DNA of 64,000 bases from NCBI RefSeq assembly GCF_003018235.1, contig NZ_CP027437.1; one strand, 5' to 3'. The position numbers and the translations under genes are program-made. Source of the DNA: Escherichia coli. GTDB lineage: Bacteria; Pseudomonadota; Gammaproteobacteria; Enterobacterales; Enterobacteriaceae. Numbering within the stretch: the stretch's first letter is position 1; each line of letters opens with the position of its first letter. A model generated the notes under the pieces. It saw only the letters and a list, made by a program, of their open reading frames with translations, was not told the DNA's origin and searched no databases. This document shows, one piece after another, positions 37,544 to 47,967 of the stretch.

Positions 37544-37999
37544 TTACGCCTCCTGCTTGTCGCGCAGCAGCTGGAACTCGCAGCTCTGTGGAATAGTCAG
37601 GTGGCAACCAATATTCATCGCCCAGGCTTCAACCTTACACAGGAAGACATACATCTCTCCGGTATCAAGATCGGAGGTATGGCGTAACGACTGGATAGTG
37701 GTGATATCACCGGTTACGACATCAACCAGGTCTTTGGTTTCATAACCGAGATATGTGTGTTTGAGAGCATCTTTTACCCAAGCTGGAGTGGCGAACGTTT
37801 TACCCCTGCTGATGAGGTATTCACTGATTTCGCTGTACCACATGTGGCTGAGTGCATTCTGGGAAAGACTGCGTCTCTCGCGCCACGGTTTAAGCACCAT
37901 GCGAAAGCATTTGCCGTCCTCCAGATAAGGCTGGATCTGCCGACCGATAGCGGTGAAGTTACCGCGATGCAATTTGATACCATCTTGTGGGAGGTTCAC
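37544..37999 (-). CDS. ybcN: YbcN-like nin-region protein
   Basis: 151-aa ORF matching DLP12 YbcN as recalled. Confidence 0.7.
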
Positions 38000-38191
38000 G
38001 CTTCACCTCCGCAGAGATCAAACGCTGGATGCAAAATATCGCAGGTGCATTTCTGCATCTGTGAATGGAGAAGAGAGGTTGGATTGTATGTGCGCATAAA
38101 CGTCCCCGTTTAGCGCAGAAGTCACCGGAGGAGTTCAAACTCTGGTGACTTAATTATGGCAAGTTGATTGTTGAAAATCAATTTAGTGGAT

Positions 38192-38974
38192 TTAGGCGCA
38201 ATACAAAGGATCATTAGCAGCTCTAATACCGCCCTGAATCGCAAGCCCTGTATGGCAATTTGACATTGAGCATGATTGCCATCTGTGCAAGGGACCTCCA
38301 TTAATCGAAACTTCCAGCAGATCTTTATCTCCTTTCATCCTGACCCCTTCATACAACATATCAAGACGCTCAACAATCAATCCTGTTGGAGGTTCCATTT
38401 TTAGAACGAGGGCAAACTCTCCTGGCCCACGTCGTATTGTTATACGCGGGCCGGTACACTCCACATCCCAATTGTCTGATTTAGCTTTCCATTCATTTTC
38501 ATCTATCAGTAAAGTCTCCTTACCAATAGAATTACAGAAAATTCCTGATAAAAGCATCGGTCCATGTGGTATGGGTGAAGGTTTCACAGAAAGAATGGGT
38601 TGTTCGTTGACTACAATCAAATTTTGACAGTTATGAAACGTCACTCCTGCAAATTTTACTGTTATAGGCTCATTATGAAAATCAAACATTTCATTTGCAA
38701 AACCAGCCTGTAAGCACTTGGGATTTCTGTCAGCTATTTCCACTGTCTGTGCTGAAAGTCTACCACGAGCTCTTTTTTGATTGCATTGGGAGCAAAGAAG
38801 TGTCATTCCATTCGGATCATGTACTTTGGCATCAACGAAGTCAGGTTTAAAATGCTCATAATCATAAAATCCAAATCCACAAATTACACAGCCAAAGCCG
38901 CACCTTTGCCTTATCTGACGTTTTATTGTCTCAGGTATTCTTCTTGAGAGCCCGTGTTTATTAATATTGTCCAT
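38192..38974 (-). CDS. Hypothetical protein with N-terminal HNH/His-Me-finger nuclease motif and uncharacterised C-terminal domain (260 aa)
   Basis: CGFGCVICG…YEHFKPDF…HDPNGMTLLCSQCNQKR fits the CxxC…(D/E)H…N…CxxC(N/H) HNH pattern; AT-rich gene flanked by non-coding spacers. Confidence 0.55.
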   Translation of the reverse strand: MDNINKHGLSRRIPETIKRQIRQRCGFGCVICGFGFYDYEHFKPDFVDAKVHDPNGMTLLCSQCNQKRARGRLSAQTVEIADRNPKCLQAGFANEMFDFHNEPITVKFAGVTFHNCQNLIVVNEQPILSVKPSPIPHGPMLLSGIFCNSIGKETLLIDENEWKAKSDNWDVECTGPRITIRRGPGEFALVLKMEPPTGLIVERLDMLYEGVRMKGDKDLLEVSINGGPLHRWQSCSMSNCHTGLAIQGGIRAANDPLYCA

Positions 38975-41764: not shown

Positions 41765-42067
41765 TCATTGTGTACCCATTGATGTTCTTTTATATACCCT
41801 CAATACCCGTTTCATCGCGGCACTCTGGCGACACTCCTTAAAAATCAGATTCGTGCTCACCTTTCCTTCCCGTTCTTCTCTGGTAGCGAACCGGTAATAC
41901 ACCGTTCGCCAGACCTTACCATCAACGACCAGGATTCCTGCCCGCGCCATTTTAGCCGCAGCCTGATTTATGCTGGTTACGGTTGCGCCTGTTACCGCGG
42001 CAACGTCCTGTGCACAGAAGCTCTTATGCGTCCCCAGGTAATGAATAATTGCCTCTTTGCCCGTCAT
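41765..42067 (-). CDS. Ren-like protein
   Basis: 100-aa ORF immediately downstream of P, the position of lambda ren. Confidence 0.5.
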   Translation of the reverse strand: MTGKEAIIHYLGTHKSFCAQDVAAVTGATVTSINQAAAKMARAGILVVDGKVWRTVYYRFATREEREGKVSTNLIFKECRQSAAMKRVLRVYKRTSMGTQ

Positions 42068-42765
42068 ACACTTGCTCCTTTCAGTCCGAACTTAGCTTTG
42101 ATTTCTGCGATCTTCGCCAGAGCCTGTGCACGATTTAGAGGTCTACCGCCCATGACAGGAAGTTGTTTTACTGGTTCAGGTATCGCCTCACCACGGTTAA
42201 TTCGCGCGGTCATACAGGACAGTTCATCGGCAGCCTTGCGCCGTAATTCCGCGTCAGTCAACGCATTGGCCCGCATGTTCTGATACAGGTTGGTAACCAG
42301 CCAGTAGTGCGCGTTTGATTTCCACGGATAAGACTCTGCATCCGGATACAGACCACGCTTCCGGCAATACTCGTAAACCATATCAACCAGCTCGCTGACG
42401 TTTGGCAGCCCGGCGGTAACGGATGCTTCTTCCCGGCACCATGCAACAAACTGCCCGGGTGATGGCAGAAATGGTCTATTCTGCCGACGGGCAACACGCA
42501 TTCCGGCGCTCACCTGTTCCATCGTGGTGATCCCGTTTTCCCGGAAAGCCAGAACCCACTGGCGGCGGATTTCGTTCAGTTCGTTCTGGTCACGATTAGC
42601 CAGGCTCGCCGGGAAAGTTGCCAGTAACTGGCTGAATACACCGTTGATTATCTGCGCTACCTGCTGTACCTGCGGCTTTTCGTCGTACTGTTCCGGCATG
42701 TTGTTGGCGATCCGACGCATCTGCTCACGGTCAAAGTTAATCATCTGTGCGGCGATGTTTTTCAT
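42064..42765 (-). CDS. Replication protein P (DnaB helicase loader, lambda P-like)
   Basis: 233-aa ORF following O; length and sequence consistent with lambda P. Confidence 0.8.
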   Translation of the reverse strand: MKNIAAQMINFDREQMRRIANNMPEQYDEKPQVQQVAQIINGVFSQLLATFPASLANRDQNELNEIRRQWVLAFRENGITTMEQVSAGMRVARRQNRPFLPSPGQFVAWCREEASVTAGLPNVSELVDMVYEYCRKRGLYPDAESYPWKSNAHYWLVTNLYQNMRANALTDAELRRKAADELSCMTARINRGEAIPEPVKQLPVMGGRPLNRAQALAKIAEIKAKFGLKGASV

Positions 42766-43781
42766 AGATCCACCCCGTAAATCCAGTCTGTGTTTGTCAG
42801 GTCGAGTTTTGGTTTGCTAGCTGTCACGCCTGCCTGTTGCTTGTTACGGTTGATTTCGAGTTGGGTCCACTTGTCGCGGAGTTTGGCCGGACTTAGCACG
42901 TTACCGGACCAGAAGTTGTCCTGGCATGCCCAGCGGAACAGCACGCACATGTCGCGGTGGTTACGTCCGTCACGTTCACGCATCAGGCGGATATCGTTAG
43001 CCCACCCTGCAAAATTCGGTTTTCTGGCTGATGGCGCGATGGTCTTCACCATGTCAAACATCCACTCTGCGGCGGTCAGGTCTTCTGCTGTCCCCCACTT
43101 GCTGCCGCTCTGAATTGCAGCATCCGGTTTCACCACAGGAAGATCGTTTTCTGGTTGGTCAGAGGATTCGCCAGAATTCTCGGACGAAAAAGGTTTTATA
43201 TTGTCTTTTGTTAGTTTGTCTTTTGTGTTTACCTGATTCGGGTAAACGCCTTTACCTGATTTGGGTAAACTTTTTTTACCTGATTCAGGTAAATTTACCT
43301 CTTTCAGGTAAACTTTATTTTTCTTACCTGATTCGGGTAATGTTGACCATTCACTGACCACATTATTAATGCCGGTATTCCGCCCGCTCTGAATAAAAAT
43401 CCCACGCTTTACCAGAACACTTTTTGCAGCAGAACACTTGTGCGGCAATATCCCGGTTAATTCGGAAAGTTGCTCGTTGCTAACCCAATCCAGTTTTTTA
43501 TTAAAGCCATATGTTTTGCGCATGACAGCCAGAAAGACCAGAAGCTGGTGCTGTGTTAATCCGGCCAGCATCACAGCTTCCAGCAACTCATTTGCAATGC
43601 GCGTATAACCATCATCGAGATCTGCCACGCGCGGCTCCTTTTGTGCCGCATCCGGCACTGGAAAATTGAATATCTCAGCAGTGTTTGCCATAATTCCTCC
43701 CGCAATGAGTGTGTTACGATTTGCACCTGAAAGTCGGTTCTGTTCCAGCAGACCGGCTTTCGCCATTTCTGAACCTGTCAT
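42762..43781 (-). CDS. Replication initiator O, with ori iterons embedded in the coding sequence
   Basis: 339-aa ORF; the internal repeated peptide LPESGKK corresponds to the DNA iterons. Confidence 0.8.
   Translation of the reverse strand: MTGSEMAKAGLLEQNRLSGANRNTLIAGGIMANTAEIFNFPVPDAAQKEPRVADLDDGYTRIANELLEAVMLAGLTQHQLLVFLAVMRKTYGFNKKLDWVSNEQLSELTGILPHKCSAAKSVLVKRGIFIQSGRNTGINNVVSEWSTLPESGKKNKVYLKEVNLPESGKKSLPKSGKGVYPNQVNTKDKLTKDNIKPFSSENSGESSDQPENDLPVVKPDAAIQSGSKWGTAEDLTAAEWMFDMVKTIAPSARKPNFAGWANDIRLMRERDGRNHRDMCVLFRWACQDNFWSGNVLSPAKLRDKWTQLEINRNKQQAGVTASKPKLDLTNTDWIYGVDL
43229..43341. repeat. Replication origin iterons: five ~19 bp direct repeats (TTACCTGATTCGGGTAAAC-like, each internally palindromic)
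   Basis: Copies at about 43229, 43251, 43277, 43295 and 43323, inside the O gene as in lambda ori. Confidence 0.8.
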
Positions 43782-44317
43782 ATTGCCCCCAGCATGGTGG
43801 TGACCATTGCCATCAGTGGACCAGCCAGATCCGGGTCCACTCGAAACATCGACACAATGCCTTCACTCATCTCCTTCAGTTTCTGGTGGCGTGGTGCGTT
43901 GAGAATGACCGCCTGCTTTGCCTCACTGAGTTCCTTTTCCATTTCAGCCAGCCGAGCCATGAAGCTATCCTGCTCAACTAGGTAACCGCGATATTCCAGC
44001 GGTAGTACCGCCAGAATTGCCGGGGTCAGTTCACGCACGTTATTTCTGTATTTTTCAGAATCGAATTTGTTATCGAGGAAGCGGAACAGCTTCTGGCGTG
44101 CACGGCTGACATCATCAGGGAAATCGATGGTGCCGCCGCCCTGCTCCCGATACTCATTCACAATGAGTGCGGCAACGACATCCTGATTATCTACAGCCGA
44201 CCAGGCGCGGACGGCATCACGGATTTTTTCGTGGCCTGGAGCTTGTTTTGTTTGAGAACGATTTATCACCGCAGTCGGGCTAAATCCGCTAGTCTGTTGG
44301 TATGTAAGTGGTTGCAT
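43778..44317 (-). CDS. CII-position regulatory protein (YdaT-like family suspected)
   Basis: 179-aa ORF directly downstream of the cro-like gene and upstream of O. Confidence 0.45.
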   Translation of the reverse strand: MQPLTYQQTSGFSPTAVINRSQTKQAPGHEKIRDAVRAWSAVDNQDVVAALIVNEYREQGGGTIDFPDDVSRARQKLFRFLDNKFDSEKYRNNVRELTPAILAVLPLEYRGYLVEQDSFMARLAEMEKELSEAKQAVILNAPRHQKLKEMSEGIVSMFRVDPDLAGPLMAMVTTMLGAI

Positions 44318-44386
44318 AATTGACTCCTTTAGTTTGAATTGACTGTTAAGTTGATTGCTTATTGTTAAAGAGCGTGAAATGGAAAT

Positions 44387-44617
44387 TTAAGCTGCGTTCT
44401 TTTCAGTGTGTGGAAACAACTTCGGAAGATCCGGGCGAATCTGGTATGCCTTCACTACTCCACCAGTAGCCGTAACAATGCTGCCGACATGTTCAGGGGA
44501 TACCTTTGCTTTGTTGTGAAGCCACTTATAGACGGCCTGCTGTGAAACTTCGCAGGCAGCGCCTAGTTTCTTTTGTGAACCAACGATATTGATCGCTGTT
44601 TTGATGGCTGGGTTCAT
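44387..44617 (-). CDS. Cro-like HTH DNA-binding protein (YdaS-like)
   Basis: 76-aa ORF divergent from cI with HTH (QKKLGAACEVSQQAVYKW). Confidence 0.7.
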   Translation of the reverse strand: MNPAIKTAINIVGSQKKLGAACEVSQQAVYKWLHNKAKVSPEHVGSIVTATGGVVKAYQIRPDLPKLFPHTEKNAA

Positions 44618-44721
44618 AACAACCTCCGTGGTTAATTTGAATCAAGATTAAAACCATGGTTGTTTTTAGTCAACAACCATTTTCGTTTGATGAAATAAAA
44701 CCTTGGTTGTACATTTGGACT
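44618..44721. promoter_or_regulatory. Divergent immunity promoter/operator region (OR-like) with three related operator sites
   Basis: AAAACCATGGTTGTTTT (about 44650-44666), CAACAACCATTTT (about 44671-44683), AAAACCTTGGTTGTACA (about 44697-44713) share the CAACCA/TGGTTG half-site. Confidence 0.6.
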
Positions 44722-45411
44722 ATGAAAACAACACTCTCAGAAAGACTTAAAGAAGCCAGATTAGCGCGAGGCCTTACACAAAAGGCGCTTGGGGATTTGG
44801 TCGGGGTTAGCCAAGCAGCTATTCAGAAAATCGAAACAGGGAAAGCTAACCAAACAACTAAAATCGTGGAGATCGCGAACGCTTTGGGTGTGCGCGCAGA
44901 ATGGTTATCTTCTGGCGTTGGAAATATGTCAGACAGTACAGTGCAACCAATACAAACAACTGTCAGCCATTCCAAATACTTTAAGATTGACGTTCTTGAT
45001 ATCGAAGTGAGTGCCGGGCCGGGAGTCATCAACCGTGAGTTTGTAGAAGTTCTACGCTCGGTTGAGTACTCGTTTGACGATGCTCGTCACATGTTCGATG
45101 GTAGGAAGGCAGAAAATATCCGCATCATTAACGTACGCGGTGACAGCATGTCAGGAACGATTGAACCTGGTGATCTTCTATTCGTTGATATCACGGTTAA
45201 ATCTTTCGACGGTGATGGTATCTATGCGTTTCTGTACGACGACACAGCCCATGTAAAGCGCCTGCAAATGATGAAGGATAAGCTGCTGGTTATCTCTGAT
45301 AACAAAAGCTACTCACCGTGGGACCCGATCGAGAAAGATGAGATGAACCGGGTATTTATCTTCGGGAAAGTTATTGGGAGCATGCCGCAGACGTATAGGA
45401 AGCATGGATAG
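44722..45411 (+). CDS. CI-like repressor (N-terminal HTH, C-terminal LexA/S24 autopeptidase domain)
   Basis: HTH (LTQKALGDLVGVSQAAIQKIETG) and S24 catalytic region (GDSMSG…, …HVKRL); start at MKTTLSERL chosen over the upstream in-frame TTG/ATG. Confidence 0.85.
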   Translation: MKTTLSERLKEARLARGLTQKALGDLVGVSQAAIQKIETGKANQTTKIVEIANALGVRAEWLSSGVGNMSDSTVQPIQTTVSHSKYFKIDVLDIEVSAGPGVINREFVEVLRSVEYSFDDARHMFDGRKAENIRIINVRGDSMSGTIEPGDLLFVDITVKSFDGDGIYAFLYDDTAHVKRLQMMKDKLLVISDNKSYSPWDPIEKDEMNRVFIFGKVIGSMPQTYRKHG

Positions 45412-45479
45412 TACCAATTAAAAATTATCAACCGGGCATTGTGCTCATTCAGTAAAACAACTTAATTATTCATTTTAGA

Positions 45480-46553
45480 ATGGAGAACTTAATGGATACT
45501 TTAAAATATGAGAAATTCTCTGATTTTGATCACAATGACCCATTTTTTGACTCTTTAAAAAAAGATTATAAAGAGTTTCCTCTTTGGTTAGAAAAAAAAG
45601 CCAGAGAAGGAGAATCAGCTTATGTGCTCTATGATGACAAGCATAAAATCGAAGGTTTTATGTATCTAAAAGAAAATGATGATGCAAATGACATTAATCC
45701 AGCGCTCCCACCAGGACGTCATCTAAAGATAGGAACATTCAAATTTGAATCTAAAGGCACCCTTCGCGGACAACGATTTCTAAAAAAAGCGTTTGACCAT
45801 GCATTTTCATCAAAATCTGATGATATTTATGTTACTGTTTTCGACAAACACGTCCATCTAATAAAACTTTTCCAAACGTACGGATTTTACATTCATGGTG
45901 AAAAAGAAACACATAACGGGAAAGAGTTTGTATATGCGAGGTCTTTGCATGAGCCTTATGGTGATATTTTATTAGATTACCCTCGAATAATGACATCAAG
46001 GGCCAACAAATATTTACTGGCGATTTATCCCGAATATCACACTAGACTATTCCCTGATTCAAAACTTGTAAATGAATCACCAGATATTGTCAAAGATATA
46101 TCCCATGCTAACAGCATTCATAAAATTTACATATGTGGAATGCGTTCTGTGATGGGAATGAAAAGAGGAGATATCATTGTCATCTATAGAACCGGAGACA
46201 AAAAAGGGCCAGCTCGCTATCGTTCTGTAGCCAGTACATTATGTGTAGTTGAGAGCGTAAAAAATATTTCTGAATTTTTAAGCGAAGATAGTTTTGTAGA
46301 CTATTGTATTCGTTTTAGCGTATTTTCTGAAGATGAACTCAGAAAAATCTATAAAGAACGTCGATACCCTTTCATTATAAGATTCACATACAATCTGTCT
46401 TTGCCAAAGAGACCCAATCGTGCTATTTTAATAGATCATGTGGGGCTAAATGGTTCGCGTGCATTCCGATGGAGTCACTTTAAACTCACAAATGAGCAGT
46501 TCTTAAAGATCATCGAGTTAGGCAAGATAAATGAAAGTTTTATTATCCATTAA
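45480..46553 (+). CDS. Hypothetical two-domain protein: N-terminal GNAT-like acyltransferase fold, C-terminal PUA/ASCH/EVE-like domain (357 aa)
   Basis: Pattern resembling GNAT motifs (…IGTFKFESKGTLRGQRFLKKAFDHAF…LIKLFQTYGFYIHG…); C-terminal half has a KRGDIIVIYRTGD segment reminiscent of PUA-like beta barrels; strongly AT-rich. Confidence 0.5.
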   Translation: MENLMDTLKYEKFSDFDHNDPFFDSLKKDYKEFPLWLEKKAREGESAYVLYDDKHKIEGFMYLKENDDANDINPALPPGRHLKIGTFKFESKGTLRGQRFLKKAFDHAFSSKSDDIYVTVFDKHVHLIKLFQTYGFYIHGEKETHNGKEFVYARSLHEPYGDILLDYPRIMTSRANKYLLAIYPEYHTRLFPDSKLVNESPDIVKDISHANSIHKIYICGMRSVMGMKRGDIIVIYRTGDKKGPARYRSVASTLCVVESVKNISEFLSEDSFVDYCIRFSVFSEDELRKIYKERRYPFIIRFTYNLSLPKRPNRAILIDHVGLNGSRAFRWSHFKLTNEQFLKIIELGKINESFIIH

Positions 46554-46908
46554 GCCTGAGTTTGCAGAAAAAATATTGAACGGAACAAAGCGGTTCGAGT
46601 TTCGTAAAGGTATATTCAAAAATCCGCAAATTAGCACCGTTGTTATTTATGCCACGATGCCATTAGGTAAAGTTGTTGGTCAATTCCGTATTGAATCAAT
46701 ACTAAGTGACGAACCGGAATCTCTTTGGAAAAAGACGGAAAAACACGCAGGTATTTCTAAGCAATTTTATGACTCATATTATTCAGGTAGAGAAAAGGCC
46801 TACGCAATAAAAATTGGTGAAGTGGAAAGATATAAAGAACCAATTCCTATCTCTGCTCTAGGTAGTAATATTAAGCCACCACAATCATATCTTTACCTAC
46901 CTGCGTAA
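46531..46908 (+). CDS. ASCH-domain protein (125 aa)
   Basis: MKVLLSIKPEFAEKILNGTKRFEFRK… is the characteristic ASCH N-terminal beta strand/helix signature; overlaps the preceding gene by 23 nt. Confidence 0.6.
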   Translation: MKVLLSIKPEFAEKILNGTKRFEFRKGIFKNPQISTVVIYATMPLGKVVGQFRIESILSDEPESLWKKTEKHAGISKQFYDSYYSGREKAYAIKIGEVERYKEPIPISALGSNIKPPQSYLYLPA

Positions 46909-47039
46909 GAATCCCGGCCACCGTGCCGGGTTTTCTTTTATCCCCTCCCCTCATCACATATACCGTTCAAAAAACCACCACAATCTCCCTTCAGTTATCG
47001 CTATGCGATGCAAGTCACAAAATAAACCCATCCTAAATA

Positions 47040-47130
47040 CAACCAGTTACATCTAAAACAACCAATAAAACAACTTTTGTTGTTGACGATAAAACAACTA
47101 TAGTTTTAAATAAATTCATCGCAACAACAC
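47040..47130. promoter_or_regulatory. OL/PL-like operator-promoter region
   Basis: Repeated AAAACAAC(C) operator-like motifs including the inverted repeat AACAACTTTTGTTGTT and a TTGACG -35-like hexamer; same half-site as the OR region. Confidence 0.5.
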
Positions 47131-47184
47131 AACGATACGGCAACCACCTGATTCACCGTTGCGATGACCGCTTAGATCCGCAGC

Positions 47185-47595
47185 TTGAATTTCAGCAGGC
47201 TCCGGGGAGTGCGAGGGGTGAAGCGGACGCGTGAACGTCGGTGTGACCAGCTGAAATCAACTCAACACTTCATACCTCAGTCGCTTCAACGAGGCGGCTT
47301 AGTTATGACAACCGGCGGCCATCCACCGCCTGAATACGCGCAGAAGTCTCCATATGTTCAGCAGCCCAGCTTACGGGCAGGAGTTTTTATGGTTCATCAA
47401 CATTATGGAACGCAGACCGTTAATCGAGGTGCGGTCATGCCAGGAATGCTGGTCAAACACAAAGATGGTACCTGGACTGCATCAGCTAATTTACGCGGAC
47501 GGCTTTATCTGCATCGCGGCATCGAGCGCACTTATACCCGTGATTTGCTCGTGGAAGTTTTTCTCGACGGACGCGGTAACGGCCTGAATCACTAA
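47185..47595 (+). CDS. Hypothetical early-left protein with N-terminal arginine-rich motif (possible N/Nun-like antiterminator); start uncertain
   Basis: N-terminus [15 protein letters not shown] resembles an ARM; first ORF downstream of the PL-like region. Confidence 0.3.
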
Positions 47596-47670
47596 TCCCC
47601 TTTCCTGTTTTCCTAATCAGCCTGGCATTTCGCGGGCGATATTTTCACAGCCATTTTCAGGAGGTCAGCC

Positions 47671-47967
47671 ATGAACGCTTATTACATTCAGGATCGTCTT
47701 GAGGCTCAGAGCTGGGCGCGTCACTACCAGCAGATCGCCCGTGAAGAGAAAGAGGCAGAACTGGCAGACGACATGGAAAAAGGCCTGCCCCAGCACCTGT
47801 TTGAATCGCTATGCATCGATCATTTGCAACGCCACGGGGCCAGCAAAAAAGCCATTACCCGTGCGTTTGATGACGATGTTGAGTTTCAGGAGCGCATGGC
47901 AGAACACATCCAGTACATGGTTGAAACCATTGCTCACCACCAGGTTGATATTGATTCAGAGGTATAA
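47671..47967 (+). CDS. gam: Gam (RecBCD inhibitor), short form
   Basis: 98-aa ORF starting [21 protein letters not shown]…, near-identical to lambda GamS; AGGAGG ribosome-binding site upstream. Confidence 0.9.

Follow-up and report, generated by a model that had tools for sequence, protein, structure and literature searches.

What do the short repeated sequences on either side of a prophage repressor gene serve, and which protein would read them? The question is raised by the early region of an Escherichia coli lambdoid (pro)phage that lies in a 64,000-nucleotide stretch of contig NZ_CP027437.1 (hereafter the window). There, a cI repressor gene and a divergent cro-like gene enclose a control region of 104 bp, called here OR (right operator), and a second control region, OL (left operator), lies past the cassette downstream of cI. 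The initial annotation had pointed to a CAACCA/TGGTTG half-site common to both regions and had taken it to define a candidate operator specificity for this repressor. Our comparisons indicate that the repeated motifs are very probably cI/Cro operators of a lambda/434-type lysis-lysogeny switch. This reading is carried by the architecture of the sites, their statistical support, their modular inheritance and their covariation with the recognition helices of both regulators.

A 14-bp pseudo-palindrome shared by OR and OL

The operator unit is a 14-bp pseudo-palindrome, A(C/A)AAC-N4-GTT(G/T)T, with a free 4-bp centre. To avoid circularity, the two control regions were searched without bias for every 5-nt palindromic half-site with spacers of 0–8, and the outcome was compared with 1000 dinucleotide shuffles. 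The top pattern was ACAAC-N4-GTTGT, with three sites in OR and two in OL, a result equalled in 5 of the 1000 shuffles; the motif is thus enriched over the local AT-rich background. A refined pattern, AMAACNNNNGTTKT, has four exact matches in the 64-kb window against 0.34 expected, a count reached by none of 100 shuffles, and all four fall in OR or OL (44650, 44697, 47070 and 47094). The window contains 12 copies of the string AAAACAAC, compared with 3.3 expected (0 of 100 shuffles reach 12), and half of these copies (6/12) lie between 44659 and 47098; CAACCA alone is only weakly enriched (56 against 39.7 expected). The sites are as follows, with PR, PRM and PL denoting the rightward, repressor-maintenance and leftward promoters.

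OR1, 44650-44663: AAAACCATGGTTGT, an exact AMAACNNNNGTTKT match within the PR spacer
OR2, 44673-44686: ACAACCATTTTCGT, a weak site with two mismatches to the palindrome, between the PR -35 and the PRM -35
OR3, 44697-44710: AAAACCTTGGTTGT, an exact match in the PRM spacer and -10
OL2, 47070-47083: ACAACTTTTGTTGT, a perfect palindrome adjoining the PL -35
OL1, 47094-47107: ACAACTATAGTTTT, an exact match in the PL spacer and -10
47039-47052: half-site ACAACC(AGTTACAT) 31 bp upstream of OL2, which may be a weak OL3
47058-47071: second upstream half-site ACAACC(AATAAAAC), with a 2-bp overlap with OL2
44619-44632: possible extra weak site ACAACCTCCGTGGT, one mismatch to ACAAC-N4-GTTGT, over the cro ribosome-binding site and abutting the start codon

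The centres of the OR sites are 23 and 24 bp apart and those of the OL sites 24 bp, and OL2 is the sole match without mismatch to ACAACNNNNGTTGT in 64 kb. All strings on which the initial annotation was built are in place, namely AAAACCATGGTTGTTTT (44650-44666), CAACAACCATTTT (44671-44683) and AAAACCTTGGTTGTACA (44697-44713) at OR, AAAACAAC at 47055, 47067 and 47091 around TTGACG (47083-47088), and the inverted repeat AACAACTTTTGTTGTT (47069-47084). The half-site that it held to be shared is real in its core, A(C/A)AAC, and not as CAACCA: the full OL operators read ACAACT, and CAACCA is found at OL only in the two upstream half-site copies (47040 and 47059). Similarly, the three motif copies reported at OL resolve into two clear full sites plus isolated half-sites, rather than three equivalents.

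The two upstream half-sites behave differently in relatives. Upstream of OL2, at a distance of 31, 31, 32 and 42 bp for the window and the Klebsiella, Salmonella and Erwinia phages, respectively, there is a AAAACAACC half-site with an unconserved right half. The half-site at 47058-47071 probably does not act as an operator in its own right; nine related sequences carry changes within its ACAAC, at positions 47058, 47059 and 47061. The ACAACCTCCGTGGT site lies 31 bp from the OR1 centre, the same distance as separates OL2 from the 47039 half-site and 434 OL2 from 434 OL3. It could be either a weak extra site or a by-product of the ribosome-binding site, and its conservation is confounded because a GGAGG ribosome-binding site lies there. 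An alternative register, GTTGT-N9/10-ACAAC, in which half-sites pair across the inter-operator spacer, was rejected because this spacer varies, differing between OR and OL and carrying 1-nt indels in relatives, while the N4 centre keeps a constant length.

Inverted repeats of this kind might instead be RNA or DNA hairpins of an attenuator- or terminator-like nature, or sites of the cII-like protein YdaT. Indeed, a scan of the sequence called a 9-bp hairpin at 44656-44680 with T-rich sequence after it on both strands, and a YdaT-family protein is encoded beside cro. However, this hairpin is no more than the OR1 right half paired with the OR2 left half and has only three GC pairs; its loop length shifts by 1 nt in either direction in relatives, whereas the 14-mers are constant in length, and an Rfam search of 44200-47700 gave no match. 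The YdaT site, TTGATT-N6-AATCAA, was rejected as the identity of the motif, being a different motif that is not enriched (42 matches against 40 expected at up to three mismatches); in CP-933P it maps between ydaS and ydaT and not in OR (PMC9986795). Hairpins or YdaT sites are thus extremely improbable as the explanation, in contrast to cI/Cro operators.

Inheritance of the operators with the repressor DNA-binding domain

The heteroimmune phages 4A7, Perceval and PhiR30_1 carry another cro, another OR and another cI N-terminal domain (NTD), with a break at about cI residue 80; their cI C-terminal domain, terminator and PL leader are 90-97% identical to the window. At OL, the exchange is confined to one segment.

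47024-47118: immunity-specific OL/PL patch, ~95 bp, exchanged as a block in the heteroimmune phages

Exactly 109 nt lie between the shared OL flanks in all eight phages compared, and the patch tracks the type of cI NTD (five of type A, three of 4A7 type, none mixed). The 4A7-type patch bears its own ATAGC-type 14-mers at matching offsets. In 4A7 (L002, 2185-2248 and 4607-4645), the 14-mers of this group read ATAGCAATGCGTAT and ATACGCAAGCGTAT at OR, and ATAGCAATAAGTAT and ATA(A/G)CAATAGCTAT at OL; in 4A7, Perceval and PhiR30_1, cI and Cro have the common helix AQPT.W.

Linkage was examined in IMG/VR by BLAST. The OL patch lies 227-1839 bp past the cI stop in 80 of 85 loci with this cI, in at least ten distance classes, and the remaining five loci end within ~1 kb of cI. 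In the reverse direction, the OL2/-35 core DNA retrieved 115 loci, and this cI NTD is present upstream in all 108 that are informative, the other seven being too short. The motif is therefore linked to this cI irrespective of the intervening cassette. Swap and linkage together establish co-inheritance of the operators with the repressor DNA-binding domain, as expected of immunity specificity, and at the level of sequence comparison the five 14-bp sites are shown to travel with cro and the cI NTD as one immunity module.

Variation among close relatives follows the outline of the sites. Changes in OR1 are limited to the centre (C>T in 49 sequences and A>G in one), those in OL1 are confined to centre bases, and the sole variant in OR3 is also in the centre. 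The half-sites of OL2 are unchanged across 74 relatives, and OR2 shows a single change among E. coli relatives, 44686 T>C in L010. Indels in relatives occur only between sites. Overall, 0 of 50 half-site positions are polymorphic (1/50 counting 44686 T>C in L010), as against 6 of 20 centre positions and 34 of 131 elsewhere (Fisher p = 7e-6), in a test whose sequences are related and whose positions and sequences are not fully independent. In one IMG/VR locus, L052, a 24-bp deletion fuses the AAAACAACT repeats of OL2 and OL1, and the right half of OL2 and the PL -35 are gone; PL is probably inactivated there and the prophage decaying.

These patterns bear on a second alternative, in which the motif reflects common ancestry or a shared architecture of PR and PL, regarded as paralogous promoters whose spacers are AT-rich, and not protein sites. 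PR and PL are alignable over ~35 bp (GTTGTTGAC-N-AAAACAAC-N4-GTTTTAA), and both control regions are AT-rich (33% and 42% GC), as this alternative would have it. Yet the motif recurs at OR3, within another promoter (PRM); the sites form palindromes; the half-site bases alone are invariant, while nearby spacer and -35-flank bases vary; and the observed count is seldom reached by local shuffles. Moreover, heteroimmune phages replace the motif block-wise yet retain the promoter at the same position, and the motif shifts along with the recognition helices of cI and Cro, as described below. We regard shared promoter ancestry as highly unlikely and retain the reading of the motifs as cI/Cro operators.

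Covariation of half-sites with the cI and Cro recognition helices

Among solved structures (PDB), the cI NTD is closest to dh434, a designed 434 derivative (1sq8, E 1.7e-9), with the 434 repressor (1per/1r69, E 4.5e-9, ~38% identity over 64 residues) and 434 Cro (E 2.7e-7) also matched. The equivalent of 434 Gln28 is retained as Gln31. The 434 helix as a whole, Gln28-Gln29-Ser30...Gln33, is not matched, cI having Gln31-Ala32-Ala33...Lys36, such that three of the four specificity residues differ; the equivalent of 434 Arg43 is Thr. The Cro helix VSQQAVYK(W) mirrors the cI recognition helix VSQAAIQK, and the best PDB match of Cro is the Xfaso1-type Cro 3bd1 and not a 434-type Cro. When the motif was compared with operators of other characterised repressors, the only resemblance was to those of 434: the six operators read from lambda imm434 are 14-mers of the form ACAA-N6-TTGT at 22-23 bp spacing. 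This outcome favours the cI of the window as the reader of the motif because the 434 repressor is its closest solved relative.

The same specificity is found in phages of other genera, whose cI NTDs are 74% (Klebsiella phage ST101-KPC2phi6.1), 61% (Salmonella P22-like phage UPF_BP1) and 61% (Erwinia phage phiEt88) identical to that of the window. All have the recognition helix SQA(A/N)IQK and exact sites at OR and, flanking a TTGAC -35, at OL, and in these loci the exact operator pattern is confined to OR and OL. OR2 is identical in the Klebsiella phage and similar in the Erwinia phage (ACAACTATCTTCGT), and OR3 is identical in UPF_BP1. The proposal that these motifs define a candidate operator specificity for this repressor is thus upheld by a motif that is exchanged with cro and the cI NTD, linked to cI and kept across genera.

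Where the helices change, the half-sites change with them:

Window phage: cI helix SQAA, Cro helix SQQA, half-site A(C/A)AAC
UPF_BP1: cI helix SQAA, Cro helix SQAA, half-site A(C/A)AAC
PA28 / HK639: cI helix SQPA, Cro helix SQPA, half-site ATAAC (ATAAC-N4-GTTAT)
4A7: cI helix AQPT.W, Cro helix AQPT.W, half-site ATAGC-type

Within each phage, cI and Cro have matching helices, and every such pair is associated with an operator type of its own. This agreement bears on the view that the sites are used by one regulator only, either by Cro/YdaS alone with cI acting elsewhere or by cI alone. Since cro and the cI NTD are always exchanged jointly, comparison alone cannot assign the sites to one of the two proteins, and the fold family of Cro differs from that of 434 Cro, both of which leave room for a single regulator. 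On the other hand, the helix starts match in seven of seven phages (SQAA/SQ(Q/A)A, SQPA/SQPA and AQPT.W/AQPT.W), each tracking the operator type, and in the related CP-933P module YdaS and the repressor both repress PL and give footprints on one and the same intergenic region (PMC8630535). Use by one regulator only is accordingly unlikely, and operators for both cI and Cro remain the preferred reading.

The residue that changes among the helices of the window phage, UPF_BP1 and PA28/HK639 aligns with 434 Gln29, which in structures of 434 contacts operator positions 2-3. On this basis we tentatively suggest, as a possibility that is itself rather doubtful, that this phage, HK639/PA28, 4A7 and 434 form a natural specificity ladder of 14-bp operators, with half-sites A(C/A)AAC, ATAAC, ATAGC and ACAA(G/T), respectively. 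In such a ladder, the Gln29-aligned residue (Ala here, Pro in HK639/PA28 and 4A7, mirrored in Cro) would set position 2, and single helix changes together with matching base changes at five or six sites might create new immunity groups of Enterobacteriaceae prophages. As part of the same conjecture, the isolated ACAACC half-sites that precede OL2 or cover the cro ribosome-binding site might be weak functional sites for looping or for a roadblock at cro.

Promoters and a proposed mechanism for the switch

The sites lie over putative PR, PRM and PL promoters in the manner of lambda and 434; the promoter hexamers were all read by eye:

44668-44673, minus: PR -35 TTGACT, which adjoins/overlaps the OR2 half-site, as does GTTGT-TGACG at PL
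44645-44650, minus: PR -10 TAATCT, after a 17-bp spacer from TTGACT
44687-44692, plus: PRM -35 TTGATG, weak, 17 bp before TACATT
44710-44715, plus: PRM -10 TACATT, 6 nt before the cI ATG
47083-47088, plus: PL -35 TTGACG, aligned with TTGATA in the patch of 4A7 type and TTGACT/TTGACA in other genera
47106-47111, plus: PL -10 TTAAAT, after a 17-bp spacer (alternatively TAAATA, after an 18-bp spacer)

OR1 occupies the PR spacer and OR2 adjoins the PR -35, an arrangement copied at PL, where OL2 adjoins the -35 and OL1 fills the spacer. At the PR -10 position, the relatives from Klebsiella, Salmonella and Erwinia have TATTCT, TATATT or TATAAT; the PL -10 shares its alignment columns with TATTAT in the 4A7 patch, and the relatives from Klebsiella and Salmonella retain TTTTAAAT. 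PRM encloses OR3, and the centre of OR2 is at -42.5 from the cI ATG. With the PRM -10 only 6 nt before the ATG and no Shine-Dalgarno sequence ahead of it, the cI mRNA is implied to be leaderless; a -10-like hexamer likewise stands 6 nt ahead of the ATG in the Klebsiella phage, UPF_BP1, PA28 and HK639, and the repressor gene of the related CP-933P module is reported to be leaderless (PMC8630535).

Based on this layout, we propose a plausible mechanism, in which binding, promoter use, activation, cooperativity, order of occupancy and looping are what we infer by extension from known switches. First, dimers of cI with a 434-like helix-turn-helix (HTH) would use Gln31 (equivalent to 434 Gln28) to read the invariant A at operator position 1. 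Cooperative occupancy of OR1 and OR2 would block PR, and cI at OR2 (centre -42.5) would stimulate the weak PRM, from which transcription would start at or next to the cI ATG to yield a leaderless mRNA. OR3, being inside PRM, would mediate negative autoregulation. At the other control region, occupancy of OL1 and OL2 would block PL, so that kil, gam, bet and exo stay unexpressed. Stimulated by RecA in the SOS response, cI would cleave itself at Ala98-Gly99 with its Ser142/Lys179 dyad, which would lift repression and induce the prophage. The YdaS-type Cro is expected to act at the same sites with the opposite outcome, shutting off PRM. Looping between OR and OL across ~2.4 kb is possible but unsupported.

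Several points weigh against our reading of the motifs as operators, in addition to the relatedness of the sequences used in the polymorphism test. OR2 carries two mismatches, and just two convincing full sites are present at OL. The refined pattern was set after the sites had been seen and was then validated on other phages. OR1 and OR3 differ in their centres only, and for this reason an affinity hierarchy is not readable from sequence. A consensus promoter scanner called none of PR, PRM and PL because their -10 hexamers are weak, and the promoter assignments therefore rest on reading by eye and on positional conservation. The promoters themselves, activation from OR2, the leaderless cI mRNA and the order of occupancy are argued from analogy.

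In the open-access literature searched, neither the operator 14-mers described here nor those of HK639/PA28 were found. The element is of an ordinary regulatory kind, and the new content lies in the operator definition and in the series of covarying helices and bases; the understanding of how such switches work is unchanged. The definition is testable and concerns an immunity type widespread among E. coli prophages: this cI has 567 relatives in IMG/VR, the best 80 of which are identical to the window cI, and isolated phages with this immunity region include IdasGreatGrand, PhiR47_2, PhiR34_1, PhiR5_1 and PhiR26_1. Knowledge of the operators makes homo-immune prophages predictable, marks the bounds of the slot between cI and PL in which defence or toxin-antitoxin cassettes replace one another, and supports helix-swap designs (e.g., Ala32 to Pro) on 434-type DNA recognition.

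Layout of the immunity region and its accessory cassette

The early region, 98.7% identical to phages IdasGreatGrand and PhiR47_2, runs in the orientation opposite to the usual lambda map and comprises the following genes and signals:

42064-42765, minus: P, open reading frame (ORF)
42762-43781, minus: O, ORF
43778-44317, minus: YdaT-family cII equivalent (Pfam PF06254, 1.4e-29), adjacent to cro
44387-44617, minus: cro-like gene, 76 aa, HTH of YdaS / P22-Cro type (Pfam PF15943 4e-17, P22_Cro 8e-5, HTH_3)
44722-45411, plus: cI repressor, 229 aa (Pfam Peptidase_S24 1e-18, HTH_3 5e-13)
45480-46908, plus: two-gene accessory cassette in the rexAB position (genes 45480-46553, 357 aa, and 46531-46908, a 125-aa ASCH protein)
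46913-46940, plus: intrinsic terminator at the end of the cI-cassette transcript (46913-46930 and then a T run; 6-bp all-GC stem)

The cro-like gene is annotated as Cro in the GenBank entry of PhiR47_2, and the autocleavage residues of cI were read from its sequence as Ala98-Gly99, Ser142 and Lys179. The terminator is kept in all relatives aligned for the OL comparison and is followed by an AT-rich stretch and then by kil-like, gam, bet and exo genes behind the PL-like promoter. The features of a lambdoid switch are thus present: a divergent HTH+S24 repressor gene and cro surround a short control region with several pseudo-palindromic sites, whose overlap with promoters relies on hexamers read by eye, and a second operator cluster of the same specificity, OL, lies at the early leftward promoter. 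The order of cI, accessory cassette and PL-like promoter in the initial annotation agrees with the gene order, the domains, the terminator and the kil-gam-bet-exo genes downstream.

No N-like gene is present between PL and the kil-like ORF (window 47112-47305, a leader of ~190 nt). A putL-like antiterminator RNA was considered for this reason. The initial ~40 nt of the PL leader resemble the start of the HK639 pL transcript, but the candidate was rejected for want of evidence: the leader has no similarity to HK639 putL, its predicted fold does not surpass that of shuffles (z = -0.29) and there is no Rfam match.

The cassette at 45480-46908 matches the PADLOC candidate defence system PDC-M11 (A 2e-133, B 7e-52). 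Its second gene encodes an ASCH domain (Pfam), and GenBank PV340567 names the pair GevT toxin / GevA antitoxin; a literature search found no paper on GevT/GevA. The slot from the cI stop to the OL patch (window 45412-47023; loci L001-L087) is a cassette exchange hotspot, with at least ten length classes of 227-1839 bp behind the same cI. Its contents include HipA/HipD (PhiR5_1), a lipoprotein (PhiR26_1) and RexA/RexB (the Klebsiella relative); in PhiR34_1 the slot is empty, and only the last ~70 nt of the ASCH gene are left.

At a distance from the immunity region, a perfect palindrome, TTGATTGTTGAAAATCAA (38164-38181), is an exact YdaT site, TTGATT-N6-AATCAA, of which ~0.008 exact matches are expected in 64 kb. 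It sits between a 151-aa ORF (37544-37999, minus) and a 260-aa ORF (38192-38974, minus) and is possibly a target of the cII type within the nin/Q region.

Comparison with known systems

The modules of CP-933P and Rac resemble the window in that the genes downstream of PR encode a Cro of the YdaS family and a CII equivalent of the YdaT family, that the repressor is co-transcribed with a moron or toxin-antitoxin cassette, and that operators are present at OR and at a PL-like promoter (PMC8630535, PMC9986795). The CP-933P operators, however, are 18-bp palindromes with the consensus GTTTAGTAA, footprinted for both PaaR2 and YdaS (PMC8630535), and this consensus was rejected as the operator here, having no match in OR or OL at up to one mismatch. 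The published description also sets PaaR2 apart, as a protein of 15 kDa (PMC8630535) in contrast to the 229-aa S24 cI of the window.

Lambda has the same gene order and strands (cro, OR, cI, accessory genes, terminator, and OL/PL leading to recombination genes), a tripartite OR with its middle site beside the PRM -35 (centre -42.5), an S24 autocleavage domain, a cI mRNA that is probably leaderless here as there, and ~2.4 kb between OR and OL. In contrast, the lambda operators are 17 bp long, compared with 14 bp here, and are unrelated in sequence; the window has no N gene after PL, its Cro and CII are of other families, and the position of rexAB is taken by the PDC-M11 candidate defence pair.

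HK639 and the Stx phage PA28 are nearer, with cI NTDs 56-58% identical to the window cI, the same 14-bp architecture, the same OR and OL spacing and the same Cro family. Their half-site is ATAAC instead of A(C/A)AAC, and their cI and Cro helices have Pro where Ala or Gln is found here. Because half-sites and recognition helices differ in this way, HK639 and PA28 are presumably heteroimmune with the window phage.

Shared with phage 434 are 14-bp pseudo-palindromic operators whose outer bases are invariant and whose centre varies, three OR sites 22-24 bp apart, and a Cro that copies the recognition helix of the repressor. OL2 (ACAACTTTTGTTGT) fits ACAA-N6-TTGT exactly, and the other four sites have one mismatch each. 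Nonetheless, the recognition helix reads Q-Q-S-I-E-Q in 434 and Q-A-A-I-Q-K here; position 5 of the half-site is G, T or A in 434, as opposed to a conserved C here, where position 2 is C or A; and only two clear OL sites are present here. Moreover, 434 has 434 Cro, whereas the window has a Cro of YdaS/P22-Cro type and a YdaT protein in the position of cII. Given that three of four specificity residues differ, that C is conserved at position 5 and that Cro is of the YdaS family and the CII equivalent of the YdaT family, the window phage is not of the 434 immunity type; 434 is nevertheless, by the likeness of repressor and operators, its closest characterised system.

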